The position numbers and the translations under genes are program-made. DNA of 64,000 bases. Origin: a virus. The notes below the pieces were generated by a model. It was given only the letters and a program-made list of their open reading frames with translations. It had not been told where the DNA came from and did no database searches. The stretch spans positions 1-64,000 of the IMG/VR virus record IMGVR_UViG_3300036823_000301, one strand, 5' to 3'. Every line of letters starts with the position of its first letter. Position 1 is the first letter of the stretch. Shown here one piece after another: positions 47,801-56,701 of the stretch.

Positions 47801-47933
47801 AAGCTGCGGACGTGCCAGCCGTGACCAATTGATAAGCATTACCAGAATTTGAAATTCTGGTGCCGATTGTCGTATAGGCGTGGGAGGTCGCCCACGCCGA
47901 TAGATTGTAATGAATCTGTGACGTAATGGTCAT
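44832..47933 (-). CDS. virion protein: carbohydrate-binding-like N-terminus, parallel beta-helix, long Ala/Thr/Gly repeat stalk
   Basis: AWATSHAY...YQLVTAGTS...DGSCVWKY; NCTF/NCLF/NSMF repeats ending RPQG..CDIGPWE; ~20-aa repeats. Confidence 0.65.
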   Translation of the reverse strand: MTITSQIHYNLSAWATSHAYTTIGTRISNSGNAYQLVTAGTSAASGGPTTTGSSITDGSCVWKYLSSIDFTSLLAWGASFSEADLTQAVVASLWNNGTITTTSGTQYLDLSNYFGTSPTNTVTVQCAQGESYRDTLAGQSTPLAFNAAAGVSFTLPATGTGATNYLRLPSNSTIIGVQFQDPNSGSGSTIMDGGPNGAVNLYDCLYDGYVQTSAGGMVGHSGGNVANCTFINRGANNEFGWCLQGFNGDSATPISVYNCLFLNTVSGNNTAAGFNNNNSSGTANIVKNSMFFGFSDTSPPIGSSGATNNIDHCIFSNTSNSWFSSQHAVDGGGNLFSKITTNQFVNPATDFRILRTADALNAGPATTTSMPVTDDVAGTSRPQGTACDIGPWELVLVQQTSAAITGTGLVTPVARAIEHGQLAQAALGTAVARAALLEAVTASTVAVASVTVNATHNPAAVANIALTGNATATTGYIAGPQAVLSGSGQAVSDSSHTAPAAPTLAGSGQLIGNATHTPQAVVSLGPVSGVAVDGLHISPGSAVFAGSGSLSLSTLFIAQAVAGPAGAATVTLNATHTPQAAVQASGVGTVLPNAILLPITTSTLGGSGGVSSTASHTPTAAPPVSGTANVTVTAANSAGGSVTVVGTGQAASSPILIDTQAALTISGNGVASATSTHTPQADTISSPITGAGSVMVGADRVPPQNTILSGAGTIFVPFASVLDSAVISIGATGGANSTALLIVQPTASSAGVVNVAASAIHTPQAAATIAVAGSAAATALIVNATNPVAIAPAGSLSASQFVLFAGAPLALAGAGSVLAGIAPSLAGSITLPGTAAITTAALAYKVAVPQITGIVGIVVQATHTPQAAIGIAPLSTVTLVEVTVLEAQPNLMGTGGALATATHTPFASATIQGSGSVALFVGSSILTAPMAIAGSGSIIVEAVHDISTSATITGTGGVATLVAPVGVARANINGLVRIRIDALVYPEHDTPSISGEGHVFVAVNIKRAPHPEPLAPWRTIVIGRRHTKNKVIA

Positions 47934-50900
47934 TGCGCACCTCGTGGGCTTACGCGAATGATTCGCGACCCCCCTGTTACCCTGCGCGCGCTTTGTGGAT
48001 CAGTGACCCGCAATGTTGTGGACCTTTCGGTGACCGTGCGCGGCGTTGGCGCAACAGTAACTTGTGCAATCCTTCGATCAGTTGCACGCGGGAATAGTGC
48101 CGGTAGCCGCCTAATAAGGGTATTGGCCTCCACGACACCGACACCAGCGATTATTGGATAAGCTGCTGATAGCTGGATTGAATCTGCGGCAACGAGACCG
48201 GAGCCGTCAATAAATGTCGTTTTCAAACGTGGTGTAGCGTCGATTAAAACATCGACTTCGCCATCAATCCCTACGCTGGCGGTCAGTGCGTGCGGAATCA
48301 GCGAATCGGTTGTGACCGAGCCCTCAGCGTCGATTTCGCCAGAAGCTGCAAGACGTAAGACACTTTCAGCGGTGACTGAGCCTTCACCGGCGGCCTGACT
48401 ACCATCAGGCCGCAACGCAGTCGAACCGGACAACGCAGAGCCAGATGCAGCAATCTCCCCCTGACCCGCCGCCAGATTGATGGTGCCGGTAGACGCTGCA
48501 CCGGACCCGCTGATGACAATATTGGCGAACGGTGCGTGAGAGACCGCACCGTTGACGCCGCCAGATCCCACCAAAACGGCTTTGCCATTAAACAGAAGCG
48601 ACGTTTGGACAGGGGGGATAGTCCCAGAGCCCGTGATTGTAGCCGCGTCACCGATCGCTGCTTCAGCAGTGACGGTGACGCTGGTCGAGCCGGAGAGTGT
48701 GGCTGTGGCGCCCGCGCTGACAATTGTCGAGGTGACGTTACCGGTGCCGTTGATCGTGACACCGGCCTGAGCGACCTCTGTAGCACGGGCTTCAACGGCA
48801 CCGGTAACGTTGACAACGGGTCGGGCTGTCGGTGTATGGGTGGCGGCGGTAACGACGCTTGCGAACCCTGTAAGGGTCGCCATGCCGGCAGGCATGTGCG
48901 TTGCCACGACCGCCCCCGCACCAGATCCGGCGAGCGCTGCGCGTCCAGCCGACAAGACGATCGCCGATGCAGCCAACTGACCTTGTGGCTGAATGGTGAC
49001 ACTGACTGTACCTGGAATAACAGCATTGGCGTTGGTTATGCTCCCAACGCCGCCGATTAGCGTCTGGGATTGGGTATCAATCAGGGTAGCGGGGACGTAA
49101 ATCGATCCTGCGCTTACAATTGAACAGGTAGCGAACGAGACTGGAAAAGCCGACGCTGAAGCGGCTCCCACGACAGCGATCAGAATCTGCGCCTGAGTAT
49201 CGGTCAGCGTCCCGTGCGCGGCTACATTACCGGAGCCAACAGCTACGCTAAGAACGTGCGCGATAACGGTGGCTGCTGACTCGACGCTGGTGGTGCCAGT
49301 GATCGTCGCTGCCGCAAAGGATTCCGAGGACAGCGCGCTGGCATTGAAGCTGGTTGAACCAACGATCGTGGTTGTGCCAGCAGCTAGCACAATAGCATCG
49401 ACGGCAACGCTACCGGTAATCACAACGGAGCAGGGATTGGAACCCGCTGCACCGCTTGGGTTAATCCCAACGCTGCCCGAACCGGTGATGCCGACGACAC
49501 CTGTCGCGACAAGCTGAGTCGCTGTGACGGCAGCGTTACCCGACCCAGCTATCGAGCTATAAGCAAACTGTTGTGGTAACCCGTTGGCTGCAACGCTACC
49601 CAAACCGTTTAGGGTGACGGGATTGGTTGCCCAAACCTGTTCGCCACTGCCAGCCCCCAGCCCCACGCCTACAAGTGCGGCCGTCGCGAATGATAAGGGT
49701 GTTAGTGCGTTACCACTGACTGTGGATGCGCCAACTAGTGCTGCCGCATCCAGCGCCAGAACGCTGGCGGTGGTCGTGACTGATCCAGCGGCTATGACCA
49801 CCCCAGACCCAGCGGACGTGCTGGCACCAACGGATGTTATGACCGAGCTGGTGCCATTGAGTGTAGCTGTCGCGAACGATTCCGGAATCGTTGTCGCTGA
49901 AAGAGCACCGACGCCGGAGACAGTTGTTGTGGTCAGTTCATCAAGAACAGCCGCGGTTGTTACGGTAGCATTACCAGACAACGCCGCTGTTGTGGCATCA
50001 AGCGCGACTGCGGCGACGGTAACGGAGCCGGTCCCGGCTGCCGAAGCGTAAGCAAATGATTCCGGCCCGATCGCACTGACGATGACCGAGCTCGCACCTG
50101 CAATGATGTCTCCATCAGACGCGAAAACGATTCGCGTGGCTGTGGTCGCGACATTACCGGACCCAGCTATGCTGGATGTGGAAAGCTGATCAGTAACAGC
50201 AACCACAAAGACACTGGCTGCCCCTGCCAATGACGAGCTTGCGAATGACAGGGGGGCTTGCGAGCTTGGGGTGACTGAACCCGAGCCAGCGATTAGGCTA
50301 GCATTCGCCGCAAAGATCTGAGTCGCGACCGCTGTGACATTGCCAGAGGTTGCAAACGTGGCTCCGGCAAACGATTCCGGCCCGATCGCATTGATGGAGA
50401 CGCTGCCAGAGCCAGCAATCAGATCGACATTAGGCGCGAAAACGATTTGCGTTGGAGTTGCTGTGGAACTACCGGAACCGGCGATCGTAGCAGTCGTCAG
50501 CTGATCAGTAACAGATGCAACGGCAACACTGCCCGCCCCTATGAGCGCTGCTGTCGCGAAAGACAGGGGAAGCAGCGCTGCGGCAGTGACTGATCCTGTC
50601 GCTGCCGCATTGACGACACCAAGCACAATCTCTGTGCCAGCTACTGCCACGTTGCCAGTGACAGTGAGCGTCGCAGAACCGGCCGTAGCTGGGGGTGTTG
50701 GGGTAGCTGTGACTGAGCCCGCCCCTATGAGCGCTGCTGTCGCGAAAGACAGGGGAAGCAGCGCTGCGGCAGTGACTGATCCTGTCGCTGCAATCCCGGC
50801 GGTTCCCGTCAGAACCTGGGTGAGTTTGATGAAGCCGGTTGCCCCAACACCACCGGCTGCGGTCGAACCATATCGCGTGCCACCGCCGCCACCACCCGGC

Positions 50901-52360
50901 CAGCCGCCGCCACCAGCCGTGCCAGTTGTCGAAGTACCGCCACCGCCACCAGATCCACCGCGACTGTCGCTCTTACCGACTGTGTTGGCAGCGCTTCCGG
51001 TTACAGTTGCCCCATCCGCACTCCCCCCTGTCGCCCCCGTCGCTGATGATGTTGTCGCTCCGGCCCCAGCGGCGCCCTCCCGTCCAGCCGTGCCGGCACC
51101 TGATGCGCCACCCCTGGCGGATGTTGTGCCGCCTGCACCACCCGCAGCACCAACTGTGTTGGTGTCGCCACCCGATCCGGCCGCGCCCGCTGCACCAGCC
51201 GACGCACCCGCTGCACCACTATGACCACCATTCGCGACAACGGTTCCGGCTGCCGTGGAGGTGCCTGTAGCGGCGCCAATGACGGCAGCGATCGTGCTGC
51301 CAGCAGTGACCGCGAGGAAATTCTTCCGTGTGTAGCCCGATGATCCGCCACCCGATCCTGATGACGTGCTTGTGCCCGGTCCACCATTACCGCCACCGCC
51401 CCAAACTTCAACCGTCGCGATGTTTGATGTCCAAGTTGCAGGAATGTTGATGCTGGTGACACCACCCAGCACGAACACTTGGTCAGGGGCATTTCCCACC
51501 CAACTGATCTTGATGCCACCGTAGCCGCCGCGTCCGATGTTGGCTGAACCTGTTGGCCCAGTTCGATCGGACCCGCCACCGCCTGGATTGCCGCCGGCCG
51601 AACCATTTATTTCTAGGGTGCCGTTGTTGCCAGAACCACCAGCTCCACCACCGCCGTTGTCGTAATCATCATCGCCAGCACCGCCGGATGCTGAACCGGC
51701 GGTCGCGCCAGATCCGCCGCCACCACCACCGCCTGGAGCTGTACCGACACCACCGACGACGCTTGCCCCTGTTCCCCCTGTTCCCCCACCGGTGCCACCG
51801 CCGTTACCACCTGCGGTTGCAGTTCCTCCGCTACCCGTTCCTCCAGATGCTGACGCGCCTCCGCCGCCACCGCCACCGGTTGTGGCACCTGTCCCGCCCC
51901 CTCCGTCGCCGCCGGTCGATCCAATTCCGCCAGGGCCGCCTGCGCCACCACCACCACCGACGCCGTTGTTGGTGCCGTTGACACCATTGAGGCCACCGGC
52001 TCCGCCAGCAAACGTGGTTGTGCCGACGCGGGTCGTACCAGAGCCACCGCCATTGGCCAGGATGGTGGCAGTCGTATTGAACCACGTGTCACCCCCTGAT
52101 TGCGCTGACGTGGTGCCAGGGGTGCCCAAGGAGAAAGGAATCGCTGTGCCGGCGGTCAGCGATTGGTTGGAAATTGTCGCATAACCGCCACCAGTACCGC
52201 CGTTGCCGGTGTTATCATCACCGGCCTCGCCTGCGCCCCAGCATTCGACCTTCGCCGCCGATGTCACGGTGAAACGGGGCGTGAACAATCCGGTACCAGA
52301 ACCGATGATGTAAACGGTGGTCAACGCTACCTCGCTATAGCTGCGAAGGTAACACGGCAA
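47930..52360 (-). CDS. large glycine-rich virion protein with ~20-aa Ala/Thr/Ser repeats
   Basis: Two Gly-rich domains (VECWGAG...GG.GGGY), then many LAGSGSV-type repeats. Confidence 0.7.
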   Translation of the reverse strand: MPCYLRSYSEVALTTVYIIGSGTGLFTPRFTVTSAAKVECWGAGEAGDDNTGNGGTGGGYATISNQSLTAGTAIPFSLGTPGTTSAQSGGDTWFNTTATILANGGGSGTTRVGTTTFAGGAGGLNGVNGTNNGVGGGGGAGGPGGIGSTGGDGGGGTGATTGGGGGGGASASGGTGSGGTATAGGNGGGTGGGTGGTGASVVGGVGTAPGGGGGGGSGATAGSASGGAGDDDYDNGGGGAGGSGNNGTLEINGSAGGNPGGGGSDRTGPTGSANIGRGGYGGIKISWVGNAPDQVFVLGGVTSINIPATWTSNIATVEVWGGGGNGGPGTSTSSGSGGGSSGYTRKNFLAVTAGSTIAAVIGAATGTSTAAGTVVANGGHSGAAGASAGAAGAAGSGGDTNTVGAAGGAGGTTSARGGASGAGTAGREGAAGAGATTSSATGATGGSADGATVTGSAANTVGKSDSRGGSGGGGGTSTTGTAGGGGWPGGGGGGTRYGSTAAGGVGATGFIKLTQVLTGTAGIAATGSVTAAALLPLSFATAALIGAGSVTATPTPPATAGSATLTVTGNVAVAGTEIVLGVVNAAATGSVTAAALLPLSFATAALIGAGSVAVASVTDQLTTATIAGSGSSTATPTQIVFAPNVDLIAGSGSVSINAIGPESFAGATFATSGNVTAVATQIFAANASLIAGSGSVTPSSQAPLSFASSSLAGAASVFVVAVTDQLSTSSIAGSGNVATTATRIVFASDGDIIAGASSVIVSAIGPESFAYASAAGTGSVTVAAVALDATTAALSGNATVTTAAVLDELTTTTVSGVGALSATTIPESFATATLNGTSSVITSVGASTSAGSGVVIAAGSVTTTASVLALDAAALVGASTVSGNALTPLSFATAALVGVGLGAGSGEQVWATNPVTLNGLGSVAANGLPQQFAYSSIAGSGNAAVTATQLVATGVVGITGSGSVGINPSGAAGSNPCSVVITGSVAVDAIVLAAGTTTIVGSTSFNASALSSESFAAATITGTTSVESAATVIAHVLSVAVGSGNVAAHGTLTDTQAQILIAVVGAASASAFPVSFATCSIVSAGSIYVPATLIDTQSQTLIGGVGSITNANAVIPGTVSVTIQPQGQLAASAIVLSAGRAALAGSGAGAVVATHMPAGMATLTGFASVVTAATHTPTARPVVNVTGAVEARATEVAQAGVTINGTGNVTSTIVSAGATATLSGSTSVTVTAEAAIGDAATITGSGTIPPVQTSLLFNGKAVLVGSGGVNGAVSHAPFANIVISGSGAASTGTINLAAGQGEIAASGSALSGSTALRPDGSQAAGEGSVTAESVLRLAASGEIDAEGSVTTDSLIPHALTASVGIDGEVDVLIDATPRLKTTFIDGSGLVAADSIQLSAAYPIIAGVGVVEANTLIRRLPALFPRATDRRIAQVTVAPTPRTVTERSTTLRVTDPQSARRVTGGSRIIRVSPRGAQ
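50531..50791. repeat. 75-bp perfect direct repeat (50531-50605 and 50717-50791)
   Basis: GCCCGCCCCTATGAGCGCTG...GATCCTGTCGCTGC occurs twice, 186 bp apart. Confidence 0.9.
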
Positions 52361-52414: not shown

Positions 52415-52778
52415 TTAGCTCAAAGTGATCGTCAACGCTCCGCTCGCAATGACCAGCGAGTCTCCAATTCCTAAAGTTCTCACGGTTGAAAGCAAACCGT
52501 ACCAAAGATAAGAACCATTAGTGCTGGAGGCAGTATCCCAAATTGAAATACCAGATACAGAGCATGCACCGGACACCGGGCCGAAGGTCATGGCCACCGT
52601 ATTGGAGGCAGAACCGGCAGGCGAGGCGGCAGGGGCAAACGACACAGTTTGCCGCGTGATACCAGACCCCAGAGCGATTTCTGAAGCTGATACCGAAGAC
52701 GGCGAACCCAACGAAATATTGACACCCATTGCACCAGGGCGCGTTGGAGTCGCCCCGAGCAGAACCCAATCAAGCATC
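52415..52778 (-). CDS. exon 2 of a small tail/fibre-associated protein (spliced product ~131 aa, MAGISTYAQKAMLDWVL...)
   Basis: LDWVL..ATPTRP...RQTVSF...ISIWD...G.YLWYG.L...RT...GD.L...GAL.I.L family pattern. Confidence 0.75.
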
Positions 52779-53052
52779 CTATGTGTTCGCGACAGGCCGT
52801 TAATCCTATCACCGCTCTTTCGAGCTGCTGCATATCCCTATGCAGAGCAGATCATGTCATCACCCATTGCATCAAATGGGGCCGGGCGCTTCCACTCACT
52901 TGAGTGTACTCCCTCGCGGGATGATCGTTGCACCTTCCGTCTTGCGACGGCTTGGCTCAAAGTTAACCGTTCTGGTACTTCTTTGAGTTCACCCGGTTCT
53001 TCGATAGATTTCTCAATCTAAAGGGCCAAAACTCATTCGTTACGGAGTCTTT
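52779..53052 (-). ncRNA. group I self-splicing intron (IA-like, P7.1/P7.2 present), ORF-less, 274 nt; boundaries could shift by 1 nt
   Basis: P3 CCGGGUG/CGCCCGG, P4 CUCAAAG/CUUUGAG, P6a CCGUC-GCAA-GACGG, P7 GAUCA/UGAUC, P7.1 UCCC-GCGA-GGGA, P7.2 CACUCA/UGAGUG, P8 CCCAUU/AAUGGG, P9 CUGCAUA-GGGA-UAUGCAG, terminal G; removal restores the frame. Confidence 0.88.
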
Positions 53053-53084
53053 GCCTTTTGGGCATACGTGCTGATACCAGCCAC
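53053..53084 (-). CDS. exon 1 of the intron-split tail gene
   Basis: AGGAG RBS (53098-53094), then GTG GCT GGT ATC AGC ACG TAT GCC CAA AAG GC. Confidence 0.75.
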
Positions 53085-53177
53085 CGATTTATACTCCTAA
53101 TTTAAGTTGACGGCACCATCTCCGACGCGCTCTTCTGACGATGCTCATCAATTAGAAGCGGTTGAAGATTTATATGA

Positions 53178-54329
53178 TCAAGCACGATCAAGCGCTGACC
53201 AATCTGAAATCGGCAAACCGGTCACAACATTGACCCCTGGCGAACAGATCCGAAGATCTTTCACCATACGACCATTTGCGCGAAGATGTAAAAGACCTTT
53301 GGCAACTAGAAGAATAGTTTCAACACTAATATCAGAGATGCACGCTGCCCCTGTATTATCCTTGTTCGGGAAACATGTCTCAGGGGTGTCATGTAACTTA
53401 TGACAACTGTGACAAGGCACTCTAATCTTGTCTGCTTCAAGCGTAACTGTATTTACCCAATGTTTCGTTATATTTTCCGCGGATGCGTGAGATATCATAA
53501 GGATCTTTGGTATTGACTCCATGCCTACGGACCATTGCGGTCCCGTATCAGGGCCTATCATGAGATCGCACTGCTGACATTGAGTCAACGAACGTCTAAT
53601 CGGCCAGCTCGGATCGGCTGGATCAGGGGAGAGCGCGAGATGCAGTCCGTCATCGCTACCATTTTGACGTTGTACGTGCTCCTGAATCGTTTTCGCAATT
53701 TCGAAGTCTTTGCCCGGTGCACCGAACATGATGACTGGGGTATTGAGCTCTCTAATAAGCCTAGCAATAGCCATGGCCGAATACGGATACAACTTATCAT
53801 GGCGGGAACCAGAAATACACCACCCGATGACTCGATCGCCGACTTTTCGTTTGGTGTCAAGCGCTTTTTCTATTTCCTCATCAGTTGGATAGAATCGAGG
53901 CCCGATTGTAAAGTCGTGAGGCACCTCACAGACATCGTGCACCATTTCGATATAGCTCTTGCCACACATTTTGCGACGCACCGACGACGGCCAATAAAAC
54001 TGCGTTTGAGCAGGGATAAGTGCGAGGGTGCTCTCACAGGTGTGGCTCAAGTTGACAAATTTCGTGAATTCGCCTGACCGCCCTACGAACCAGCGCTGCC
54101 ATTCCAAGATTCCCCCTTGCGGTGTGCCGATCTCCCCTGACTTCTTGACCGACAGCTTGTCAATGTAGGGATTGTTTTCAAACACGACATGATGCGGCTC
54201 TTGCGCGATAACTTCCAGGTTGTAATCCTGCGCGATCAGGGGGAACGCGGATGAGCACATCAGATTGTCACCTATGGAGCCGAGCCGCACGACACCATAC
54301 CAGCCCTTCGGTTTGCGAATGATTCCCAC
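53178..54329 (-). CDS. GT9-family glycosyltransferase (heptosyltransferase-like)
   Basis: RLGSIGD, NNPYID, K.YP, IGPDTGP, CHSC. Confidence 0.85.
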   Translation of the reverse strand: MGIIRKPKGWYGVVRLGSIGDNLMCSSAFPLIAQDYNLEVIAQEPHHVVFENNPYIDKLSVKKSGEIGTPQGGILEWQRWFVGRSGEFTKFVNLSHTCESTLALIPAQTQFYWPSSVRRKMCGKSYIEMVHDVCEVPHDFTIGPRFYPTDEEIEKALDTKRKVGDRVIGWCISGSRHDKLYPYSAMAIARLIRELNTPVIMFGAPGKDFEIAKTIQEHVQRQNGSDDGLHLALSPDPADPSWPIRRSLTQCQQCDLMIGPDTGPQWSVGMESIPKILMISHASAENITKHWVNTVTLEADKIRVPCHSCHKLHDTPETCFPNKDNTGAACISDISVETILLVAKGLLHLRANGRMVKDLRICSPGVNVVTGLPISDWSALDRA

Positions 54330-54343
54330 TTAATTTGTATCTT

Positions 54344-56701
54344 TCAAGGTGATGCGAATGCGATTGACGGACCCCAGTCACTGGTTCCAGCGCTGGTGAT
54401 GACTTGAACTTGCGCGAGGTAAAAATCGCCAGATACGGCGCCAGACAGCGAAAGCTGCCAAGTTGTTGAGCTCGTCTGTGTAGGACTTGAAATGAATGTA
54501 GCATAACCGGGTGATAGAGAATCAAACGTCCAACGAAAGTTGAATGTTGGAGTTCCTGTCCCAACCCATGTCCAGGCTATCAGCGGCTTTCCAGCAGTTC
54601 CTCCAGCTAAATGGACATTTGTAGGAACTGGAATGATTGTGAAAACAGGTCTTGTTGTAAATGGGCTCGTCGTAAACGGTCCGTATGTCTGCGACGTCGG
54701 TCCCGTCCCCTGTGCATTTGTTGCCTGGACCTGGAACCATACTGGGATGCTGTCAAATGACGCCGACACAAGATAATTTGTTAACGCTTGAAAATTGACG
54801 ACACCCCAGCCTGTGCACGCATCCCACCCGTTGTTAACAACAGGATAGCCTGGAGATCCATTGCTACTATTATTCGTGCCACTACCGGATTGCGTACCGA
54901 TATCGCGAATGGTTAATAAAAACGGAATTGGGTCATTAACCTGAGCCCATACAGAGTTTGCATCACCAGGAGATTTTTCATAAAATAAGCCAGAACTGTT
55001 CTGTTGAAAAAGCAAATCAATGGGCGGGCTCATGTATAATAAATACACGACGTTTGCTGTTGTCGCATCCACGGTCCCATGGTTTGCGATTTGCAAACCA
55101 TTATTTGCTGACGTAACGAGGCTAAAAACATTACCGTGGGTGTCAGTAATATTGACACCGGCCCCATTAGCCGCTTGCGCGTTCCACAGACCTTGTTGAA
55201 TATGATATATTGTTGGATTAAGAAACCCCAACGGACGCCCCAACGCTTGCATGACTCTGGCAAGGCAACCGGCATACTGCGGTGCTGTCACACTAGTTCC
55301 ACCAATCACACCGAACGCGCCGTTAACTTCGGTATTGTAACCGCTGAATGAGCTAGCATTCCCTGCTACATCAGGCATTCCACGCCCTATAAAACCAAAA
55401 TCCGACTGTGCTGGCATATTTGGGACGTAGATCGTCTGATAAGTAGGTCGTGGAAAAATTCTGCTTATGCCACCCCCTGTCGCACCGATACTATTTGGGT
55501 TATCGTTCCAAACCCATTCAGTGAATGTCGGATATTGACCGGTGCCGATGCTAGCGACTGTGGTCCCACCTGTATTTAAGATCCAAGGGCTGCCACAAGG
55601 ATAAGCTATCCAATTTTCCGTTGTTGATGGAAAGTAATTTGAAGATCCTTCATCACCAACAGCAGAGATGATTGTCACCCCAATAAGTGCAGCGTCCTCA
55701 TGATAAGTCTCACATGCATTAAAAAAGGGAATGTATGTATTCTGTTCAAAATCTTCCGTAAAAACACTTGATATTGAAAATAGAGTTACAACAGGATCAC
55801 CTGGATTGGGATGCAACATTCGTGCAAGCAACTCTGGATAATTTTCAGCTGAGCGATCAGCAAAATAAATCGCTAAAGTTTTCACACCTCCGGAAAATCC
55901 CAAGATCATAACATTATCGACGTTACCTTCTCCAGCATCTCCACTATTTGGATCAGATCCATTTGTGCTCCCATCGACAGACACGAACACTGTGCTCGTC
56001 GTCGTGCCAGCAGAAGCTAAACCCCAATTGTTCAAAGTATTTTGAATTTCTGTAGCATTCTGAAGCCAACCATAAAGACCAATAACTTGCTGATTAGCGC
56101 TTGTTGTCAATCCGCTGTAAATCCCAGATATCTGTTGTGGTGTAAATGAAACACCATTAGGTAGATCGGCTGGAGGAACTGTAGCGCGAACAGCTTTATA
56201 TTCTGTATGCACACCGAGAATCGCATGCAGCATCGGATGAATATGGTCCGGAACGTGAAATCCCGTATGCGTCCGAAATTTGTAGCGGCCTAACCTTGGG
56301 TGTTCCTTTTCATAATGATGAATTTCAGTATGAAATGCCTTTTCCAACTGATCGACCGAAGCGTTAACGACAACCATACGGCGGGAGCCGTGTGATTCAC
56401 ACCAACTGAAGCCAGATGCTTTACAGAAACTCTCTATCGCTCTGATCTCATCAGGATGAGCACCATACTTCTGTTGAAAGTCCGGATCTTGCCGTGTCCG
56501 AGGTGGGCAGCCCAAGAACTCATAAAACTCCGGAATCGGATCGTGCCCCGGCCGACGGCGAAGGTGAAACTTCACACGGATAGATTCATCTTTAGGGGCA
56601 CGGCCGACATAAGTCGTCCTCGCAGGATCAGGGGGGAACCTATGCGCTGGGGCTAAAGCTTTGTATCCGATAGGGGGCATTAGAATGGCCGTGTCTTCCA
56701 A
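54344..56701 (-). CDS. S53 (sedolisin/kumamolisin) serine-carboxyl peptidase with prodomain, inserted module and FN3-like tail
   Basis: Prodomain; GEGNVD (Glu/Asp), GDEGS oxyanion Asp, GRGMPDVAGNA, GGTSVTAP (Ser), WDACTGWG. Confidence 0.9.
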   Translation of the reverse strand: MEDTAILMPPIGYKALAPAHRFPPDPARTTYVGRAPKDESIRVKFHLRRRPGHDPIPEFYEFLGCPPRTRQDPDFQQKYGAHPDEIRAIESFCKASGFSWCESHGSRRMVVVNASVDQLEKAFHTEIHHYEKEHPRLGRYKFRTHTGFHVPDHIHPMLHAILGVHTEYKAVRATVPPADLPNGVSFTPQQISGIYSGLTTSANQQVIGLYGWLQNATEIQNTLNNWGLASAGTTTSTVFVSVDGSTNGSDPNSGDAGEGNVDNVMILGFSGGVKTLAIYFADRSAENYPELLARMLHPNPGDPVVTLFSISSVFTEDFEQNTYIPFFNACETYHEDAALIGVTIISAVGDEGSSNYFPSTTENWIAYPCGSPWILNTGGTTVASIGTGQYPTFTEWVWNDNPNSIGATGGGISRIFPRPTYQTIYVPNMPAQSDFGFIGRGMPDVAGNASSFSGYNTEVNGAFGVIGGTSVTAPQYAGCLARVMQALGRPLGFLNPTIYHIQQGLWNAQAANGAGVNITDTHGNVFSLVTSANNGLQIANHGTVDATTANVVYLLYMSPPIDLLFQQNSSGLFYEKSPGDANSVWAQVNDPIPFLLTIRDIGTQSGSGTNNSSNGSPGYPVVNNGWDACTGWGVVNFQALTNYLVSASFDSIPVWFQVQATNAQGTGPTSQTYGPFTTSPFTTRPVFTIIPVPTNVHLAGGTAGKPLIAWTWVGTGTPTFNFRWTFDSLSPGYATFISSPTQTSSTTWQLSLSGAVSGDFYLAQVQVITSAGTSDWGPSIAFASP

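Follow-up and report, generated by a model that had tools for sequence, protein, structure and literature searches.

A predicted group I intron without an open reading frame splits a gp80-type virion fibre gene of an uncultured soil phage, with A or C in place of U before the 5' splice site

In the virus record IMGVR_UViG_3300036823_000301 (74,423 bp, rated complete by CheckV), which represents an uncultured soil phage, a gap on the minus strand separates the gene for a GT9-like glycosyltransferase (54329-53178) from a 120-aa open reading frame (ORF; 52777-52415). All coordinates refer to the window, that is, the whole 64,000-nucleotide stretch analysed, positions 1 to 64,000 of the record. 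Is this gap merely intergenic or does it contain an intron that splits the downstream gene and, if so, where are the exons joined? A preliminary description, made from the sequence, had proposed an ORF-less group I intron in a tail gene, with an atypical 5' splice site and a variant P7 helix.

A comparison with Pfam assigns the 120-aa ORF to PF23140 (podophage GP4 fiber I protein gp80), with a score of 68.4 bits against a gathering threshold of 27. The match covers profile positions 10-128 only; positions 1-9 are missing from the ORF, and its ATG (52777) lacks a properly spaced ribosome-binding site (RBS), with AGG abutting the ATG. A search of 5.8 billion proteins yielded 264 relatives, nearly all of 130-132 aa, which share the N-terminal consensus MAxISAYxEKA-MLDW, without a single indel among 41 aligned sequences. 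The closest full-length relatives are P0002 (MAGIAVYAEKA-MLDWVL, 90% identical) and P0004 (MAGISTYAQKA-LLDWVL, 81%). A mini-exon upstream of the gap sequence, preceded by a Shine-Dalgarno motif, encodes MAGISTYAQKA, identical at 11 of 11 positions to the N-terminus of the intron-less P0004. Read without splicing, the frame that starts at GTG 53084 gives MAGISTYAQKAKTP and a stop, i.e. MAGISTYAQKA followed by KTP and the stop codon. Among cultured phages, only three homologs were identified, all distant and unsplit; a metagenome scan retrieved five loci with about 50% identity among the matches listed, a genome scan only two distant matches, in a Phenylobacterium MAG, and a single-protein scan of viral contigs no match. 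The gene is predicted to be organized as follows:

53094..53098, minus strand: Shine-Dalgarno sequence AGGAG, with a 9-nt spacer to the GTG start (read directly)
53052..53084, minus strand: exon 1, the mini-exon, GTG plus 10 codons (MAGISTYAQKA), with A53052 (option A) or C53053 (option B) as its last base (homolog N-terminus, HMM junction)
52778..53051 (option A) or 52779..53052 (option B), minus strand: ORF-less group I intron, 274 nt (Rfam, pair counts, continuous DNA of the intron-less contigs L003, L001, L015, L030 and L031)
52415..52777, minus strand: exon 2, which supplies residues 12-131 (MLDWVL...) of the gp80-type fibre protein and the stop codon (PF23140, homologs, fold match 8jou_a)

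An AlphaFold (AF2) model of the homolog P0004 (pLDDT 85) contains a helix at residues 6-16, so that, on this model, the interruption between codons 11 and 12 would fall inside the N-terminal helix. The best PDB match of the model is GP4 fiber I (8jou_a, E 1.8e-5, TM 0.70), followed by neck/connector appendage proteins of phages Bas63 and Sf14; assignment to the PF23140 family is thus consistent between profile score and fold. The chain-like fibre of GP4 consists of gp80 dimers threaded onto a second protein, the rope protein (PMC13730344). The surrounding genes encode Dit-like, baseplate hub gp41-like, DUF2612 and FN3 proteins. Judging from family membership, predicted fold and neighbours, the gene encodes a gp80-type virion fibre subunit within a baseplate/tail module; the label "tail gene" used in the preliminary description is fair, and a small virion-fibre subunit gene is the more precise designation.

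The exon junction was located by scoring 752 in-frame combinations of 5' and 3' cuts against an HMM of full-length homologs. The best junctions (215.8 bits, versus 195.3 bits for the unspliced ORF) join ...AQKA to MLDW..., with exon 1 ending at C53053 or A53052 and the intron at G52779 or G52778. Removal of 53052-52779 or 53051-52778 gives an in-frame 131-aa protein, with a predicted N-terminus MAGISTYAQKAM... and a predicted peptide across the junction ...YAQKA-MLDWVLLGATPTR. The best junctions with a canonical U before the intron and G at its end reached 209.7 bits (Y^RTHRM; the caret marks the joint) and 209.0 bits (AKT^M, with two extra residues). The former, cut after U53064, is disfavoured both by its score (209.7 versus 215.8 bits) and by the P1 scan described below.

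Intron-less DNA of relatives points to the same position. The contigs L003, from which P0002 is derived, and L001 read AAA GCT^ATG CTC GAT TGG and AAA GCG^ATG, respectively, and both are continuous through the site. In two further intron-less contigs (L015 and L031), the sequence AAGGCA^ATGCTTGATTGG equals the window exons joined after A53052, and in another (L030), AAGGCG^ATGCTTGATTGG equals the exons joined after C53053. Homologous DNA and protein together fix the junction to within ±1 nt, and hence, the 5' exon ends with A53052 or C53053, not with U. The preliminary description had joined an RBS-led MAGISTYAQKA in frame to MLDWVL and had the 5' exon end in C or A; both statements agree with the best of the 752 junctions and with the alignment of intron-less homologs, in which the DNA runs uninterrupted across the insertion point GCN^ATG. 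A second soil study yielded a 202-nt contig with the same sequence as the window across 52967-53168, so the A at the splice site is not an assembly slip. No exon joints, intron-less form or variant bases were found among the contigs matched to the stretch.

The gap sequence itself has the hallmarks of a group I intron. Rfam family RF00028 matches 53044-52828 on the minus strand over the full model (1-253) with 54.7 bits, above the gathering threshold of 50 (E = 4e-11 for the window and 1.1e-14 for the whole 74.4-kb genome), and this is the only such match in the whole virus record. The longest stop-to-stop frame inside the 274 nt is 80 aa, which leaves no homing endonuclease within the intron. 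The features of a mobile (homing) intron are accordingly lacking here: no endonuclease is encoded in the intron, and the neighbouring genes encode the GT9-like and repeat proteins. The following elements were assigned:

53058-53045 / 53034-53021, minus strand: P1 hairpin (minimum free energy [MFE] fold, exhaustive P1 scan, register of the internal guide sequence [IGS] as in the sibling introns described below); exon strand 53058-53053, A53052 opposite G53027, intron extension 53051-53045/53034-53028, IGS 53027-53021
53005..53020, minus strand: P2 hairpin UAGAUU/AAUCUA with a GAGA loop (compensatory relative to siblings in 3 of 6 pairs)
52996-90 / 52888-82, minus strand: P3, enclosing P4-P5, P6/P6a, the P7 5' strand, P7.1 and P7.2 (Rfam, pair map, covariation)
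52986-52957, minus strand: P4-P5 (pair map)
52956-52932, minus strand: P6/P6a (pair map)
52926-22 / 52854-50, minus strand: P7 pseudoknot GAUCA/UGAUC, spanning P8 and J8/7 (covariation)
52921-52910, minus strand: P7.1 (compensatory in 4 of 4 pairs)
52906-52893, minus strand: P7.2 (compensatory in 4 of 5 pairs)
52880-52863, minus strand: P8 (pair map)
52845-52828, minus strand: P9 (pair map and MFE)
52825-52814, minus strand: P9.1 with a GAAA loop (pair map and MFE)
52812-52789, minus strand: P9.2 (pair map and MFE)
to 52778, minus strand: 3' tail with GG at its end (52779, 52778); the terminal omega-G is one of these two (directly before the exon-2 ATG)

All 68 mapped pairs form in the window sequence, and the hairpins also emerge from an MFE fold computed without constraints (z = -3.5). 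The complete minus-strand core of the preliminary description withstood this scrutiny: P3 (52996-90/52888-82), P4 (52987-81/52962-56) and P7 (52926-22/52854-50) are fully paired at exactly these coordinates, P2, P6, P7.1, P7.2, P8 and P9-9.2 all pair, as do P1 and P5, the group I model scores above its cut-off (54.7 versus 50 bits), and the intron is indeed ORF-less, with the 80-aa frame as the longest. P7.1 and P7.2, which are built from the 31 nt that separate P7 from P3', place the intron in subgroup IA (phage td-like).

Covariation was assessed in an alignment of four sequences: the window intron, two sibling introns and the DNA polymerase intron of an Acinetobacter phage (L085). Pairing was observed in 93% of the cells, compared with 30-44% when partners were slid by 1-3 columns, a control that flatters the pairing figure somewhat because it was the window sequence itself that supplied the structure; the compensatory counts are still large, with changes on both sides in 29 of the 68 pairs. 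None of 500 shuffles reached any of the pairing measures. The P3-P9 core of RF00028, including the P3/P7 pseudoknot, is thus maintained by covariation. P7 begins with the pairs G52926-C52850 and A52925-U52851, which do not vary among the four aligned introns and presumably form the guanosine-binding site, as assigned from Tetrahymena numbering. At the other end, G52779 and G52778 directly precede the exon-2 ATG, so a terminal omega-G is available. The MFE fold also pairs exon 1 GCCCAA (53062-53057) with exon 2 UUGGGU (52769-52764), on the minus strand; this pairing may bring the two splice sites together or may be due to chance.

The P7 helix, which reads GAUCA/UGAUC in the window and GACUA/UAGUC in the siblings and in the nearest annotated phage introns, had been considered atypical in the preliminary description, but this view did not hold: the variant is common, occurring in at least 115 IMG/VR contigs, and in 13 of 17 sampled contigs, Rfam identifies a group I intron at exactly the position of the variant P7. 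Relative to the siblings, four coordinated substitutions have exchanged two neighbouring pairs, with the G-C and A-U pairs at the P7 start unchanged, and this compensatory swap argues that the ribozyme stayed under selection. A U-to-C change in J8/7 coupled to the swap was considered and rejected, given that U is kept in 99 of 109 variant-P7 introns among the matches listed. No gp80 gene was found near the variant-P7 loci among the 115 listed. In each of four short viral contigs in IMG/VR (L160, L092, L107 and L164), a span of 1-2 kb holds two or three group I introns, which reveals dense intron clusters in uncultured phages.

A pattern search of IMG/VR, with the J8/7-P7' core joined to the exon-2 start, retrieved one other locus, on contig 3300032954_000040 (L209) of a syntenic soil phage with the GT9 gene upstream and repeat proteins downstream. 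Its features, with boundaries defined by the protein, are as follows:

1591-2492 of L209: gp80 gene with two ORF-less group I introns, 131 codons when spliced
1610-1860 of L209: intron 1, 251 nt, GGA GCC U^...UUCG^AU GCC CAA AAG, inside the Tyr7 codon, 13 nt upstream of the window site
2152-2406 of L209: intron 2, 255 nt, CUU GGG U^...UAAGG^AU GGC ACG, codon 103/104

Both introns were confirmed by Rfam (78.2 and 70.1 bits) and are 73% and 64% identical to the window intron, respectively. Their removal leaves a clean 131-aa protein that is 65.6% identical to the spliced product of the window. The three introns interrupt the same gene family in syntenic phages, lack ORFs and share a 5' region, GG(G/C)CCUUUAG-P2-AUCGAAGAACCGGGUGAA, that was found nowhere else in IMG/VR. 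They differ in that the L209 introns occupy other sites, show canonical sequences both in P7 and at the U·G wobble, and have a P1 with a short loop and a 3' tail of 10 nt. The distance from the wobble G down to P2 is exactly seven bases in either sibling; next to this G come three Watson-Crick pairs whose bases covary with the adjoining exon (C-G, C-G, G-C in intron 1 and G-C, G-C, G-C in intron 2), and then a mismatch to a conserved C. At the second L209 junction, the nearly invariant Trp103 (UGG) of the family is Gly (GGG); this codon provides three G-C pairs with the guide, so the L209 exon has apparently been adjusted to suit its intron, and a residue that is otherwise conserved was lost in the process.

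The gene neighbourhoods of the two phages can also be compared. The GT9-like glycosyltransferase gene (53178-54329, minus strand) occupies the same position in L209 (2-874), with 55-67% amino acid identity in tblastx. Directly downstream of the fibre gene, the window encodes a 1476-aa repeat protein rich in Gly, Ala, Ser and Thr (47930-52360, minus strand), for which no Pfam or PHROG match was found; similar repeat proteins follow gp80 in L209 (tblastx). The GT9 gene, gp80 and the repeat protein gene thus appear to constitute a conserved module and, by analogy with the GP4 dimers strung on a rope protein, the 1476-aa protein may be the equivalent of that rope protein. Also within the tail module, a 785-aa protein (54344-56701, minus strand) contains a pro-kumamolisin (sedolisin S53) activation domain (Pfam, 59.1 bits). 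In several relatives, two gp80 paralogs lie in tandem, about 400 nt apart (L014 2037/2436, L041 2037/2451, L008 2443, L060 2434), an arrangement that recalls the chain-like fibre built of two proteins in Pseudomonas phage A1002 (PMC13730344).

U at the last exon position is nearly universal in group I introns, and the U·G wobble is among their most conserved features. We compared every candidate last-exon base with every possible guide position. A single P1 stands out, in which exon 53058-53053 pairs with 53026-53021 and intron 53051-45 with 53034-28, with A53052 and G53027 facing each other as a 1x1 mismatch. In this exhaustive scan, none of the U·G candidates combined a good helix with a protein-compatible junction. 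The window follows the sibling register, G53027 and then C-G, G-C and G-C, ending with A×C, and by this register, the homologous reactive position is A53052·G53027. In place of the U·G wobble, the cut site is thus predicted to hold either an A·G mismatch or the Watson-Crick pair at the neighbouring helix position, C53053-G53026. The 5' side favours A53052 with omega-G 52778. Conversely, L085 and both L209 introns have exactly 10 nt between P9.2 and omega-G, and the same spacing in the window points to omega-G 52779; since this G keeps the frame only if the cut falls after C53053, the 3' side disagrees with the 5' side on the register. Both registers encode Ala-Met. No convincing P10 was found, and P10/P9.0 as judged by eye are too weak to choose between G52779 and G52778.

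Taken together, the comparisons indicate that the fibre gene is split after codon 11 by a genuine ORF-less group I intron of the IA type. That this intron separates codons 11 and 12 and that splicing is needed for the 131-aa protein is, in our assessment, probable; splicing in vivo and the choice of register are what we infer from sequence comparison. Transcription of the tail operon would yield a pre-mRNA on which translation starts at the RBS-led GTG 53084. Unspliced RNA would give a 14-residue peptide, with the stop at the in-frame UAA 53042-40 inside P1. The ribozyme would fold and dock P1, and external guanosine would attack after A53052 (or C53053); the freed exon would then attack after omega-G 52778 (or 52779), with the loss of 274 nt, and the joined exons, ...AAG GCA^AUG CUU... 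(or ...GC^G AUG...), would encode the 131-aa fibre subunit. The steps after ribozyme folding are modelled on the established chemistry of the group I family. Mutagenesis work on Tetrahymena reportedly leads one to expect that A·G or C-G at the cut site slows the first step, and accordingly, this step may be slow here. As for the earlier suggestion that splicing gates production of a virion protein, such dependence follows trivially if the intron splices, whereas regulation finds no support in these data.

The non-U base could also mean that the intron is crippled, through a U-to-A change at position -1 or a poor insertion site, leaving the fibre gene close to a pseudogene or expressed at a trickle. 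The siblings and L085 all have U at this position, and the disagreement between the two ends fits this view as well, since a cut after A53052 combined with omega-G 52779 would cause a frameshift. Decay, however, is at odds with the intactness of 68 of 68 core pairs, the compensatory nature of the P7 changes, the retention of a strong RBS and of a mini-exon still identical to its homolog at 11 of 11 positions, and the recovery, in two soil studies, of a genome rated complete; natural C·G splice sites, moreover, reportedly have a precedent (Hur and Waring). We consider a crippled intron improbable.

Still less probable, in our estimation, is a cut at a cryptic site after U53046 (...GCA AAG ACU^), with the same guide G53027 and ligation to AUG 52777, which is the only U·G alternative and gives a 2-aa insertion. 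Such a cut would restore U·G at the homologous guide G and would be in frame with omega-G 52778; the predicted 133-aa product, with Lys-Thr inserted (...AQKAKT-MLDW...), is still recognised by the HMM at 209.0 bits. Yet this is 6.8 bits below the best junction, the 41 aligned homologs are free of indels in this helix, the intron-less DNA places the insertion point at GCN^ATG, and the corresponding P1 would contain two mismatches and could form only at the expense of the stable 7-bp extension, where U53046 is paired with A53033. It is hardly credible that the intron is not in use and the 120-aa ORF is translated alone from ATG 52777, with the upstream RNA a relic or in another role: gene callers report this ORF and P0001, P0003 and P0093 start at MLDW, but no spaced RBS precedes ATG 52777, the product would be missing half of the conserved N-terminal helix, the conservation of the mini-exon would be left unexplained, and the Rfam match and covariation argue for a ribozyme.

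A spliced, in-frame 131-aa product thus being the preferred reading, the intron can be placed among known systems. By core sequence and structure, it belongs to the phage IA introns, an already known kind, represented by the T4 td/nrdB type and by the polymerase introns of the N4-like phages PhAPEC5/7 and the Acinetobacter phage vB_Ab_1137_KEN_02. These introns have the same core with P7.1/P7.2 as the window (66-78% nucleotide identity in the core, with an alignable P9.1-P9.2 tail) and also an early in-frame stop after the 5' splice site. In contrast to the window, with its A or C and its swapped P7, they show the canonical GACUA/UAGUC in P7 and U at position -1 (the latter shown for L085). 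An HNH endonuclease and a location in replication genes are frequent among them, whereas the window intron is ORF-less and lies 33 nt into a fibre gene.

Some mitochondrial group I introns reportedly depart from U·G in nature and have C·G at their 5' splice site (Hur and Waring, Nucleic Acids Res 1995;23:4466); there, as in the window, the exon codon apparently constrains the base. Those introns, however, are said to be organellar, and the homologous wobble position of the window is A·G, for which we know of no natural precedent.

Group I introns also interrupt the major capsid genes of crAss-like phages (PMC7886860), so that, as in the window, a virion gene is split; the novelty of a location in a structural gene was therefore overstated in the preliminary description. 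The crAss-like introns were recognised via intron-encoded endonuclease domains, and their hosts are capsid, terminase and polymerase genes (PMC7886860). A literature search found no published group I intron in a gp80-type fibre gene. What sets the window intron apart is the predicted A or C at position -1 beside siblings that keep U; also unusual are the confinement of three endonuclease-free siblings to one small gene and the location only 33 nt from the start codon.

For annotation, these observations mean that the protein called at this locus, 120 aa long, is missing half of its N-terminal helix, and that the true product, as predicted from the spliced reading, is 131 aa long; the same gene-calling error probably affects P0003, which is 88% identical and likewise called at 120 aa, as well as P0073 and P0093. 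Given the distance of 33 nt from the start codon, ribosomes on the mini-exon would run through P1, which makes interference between splicing and translation likely. The 274-nt window ribozyme with its A or C and its U·G siblings provide a natural comparison for the strictness of the U·G requirement. The window intron appears to have reached its site from a sibling intron. Three endonuclease-free siblings at three sites of one gene, and in no other IMG/VR gene, point to site-hopping without homing. It is possible, and we suggest it tentatively, that the window intron splices efficiently in vivo with A·G or C-G at the cut site, a natural relaxation of the U·G requirement, and that the three ORF-less siblings colonised three sites of a gene of about 400 nt by retargeting their guides (GGCCC, GGGCC and GCCCC), probably via reverse splicing rather than endonuclease homing.
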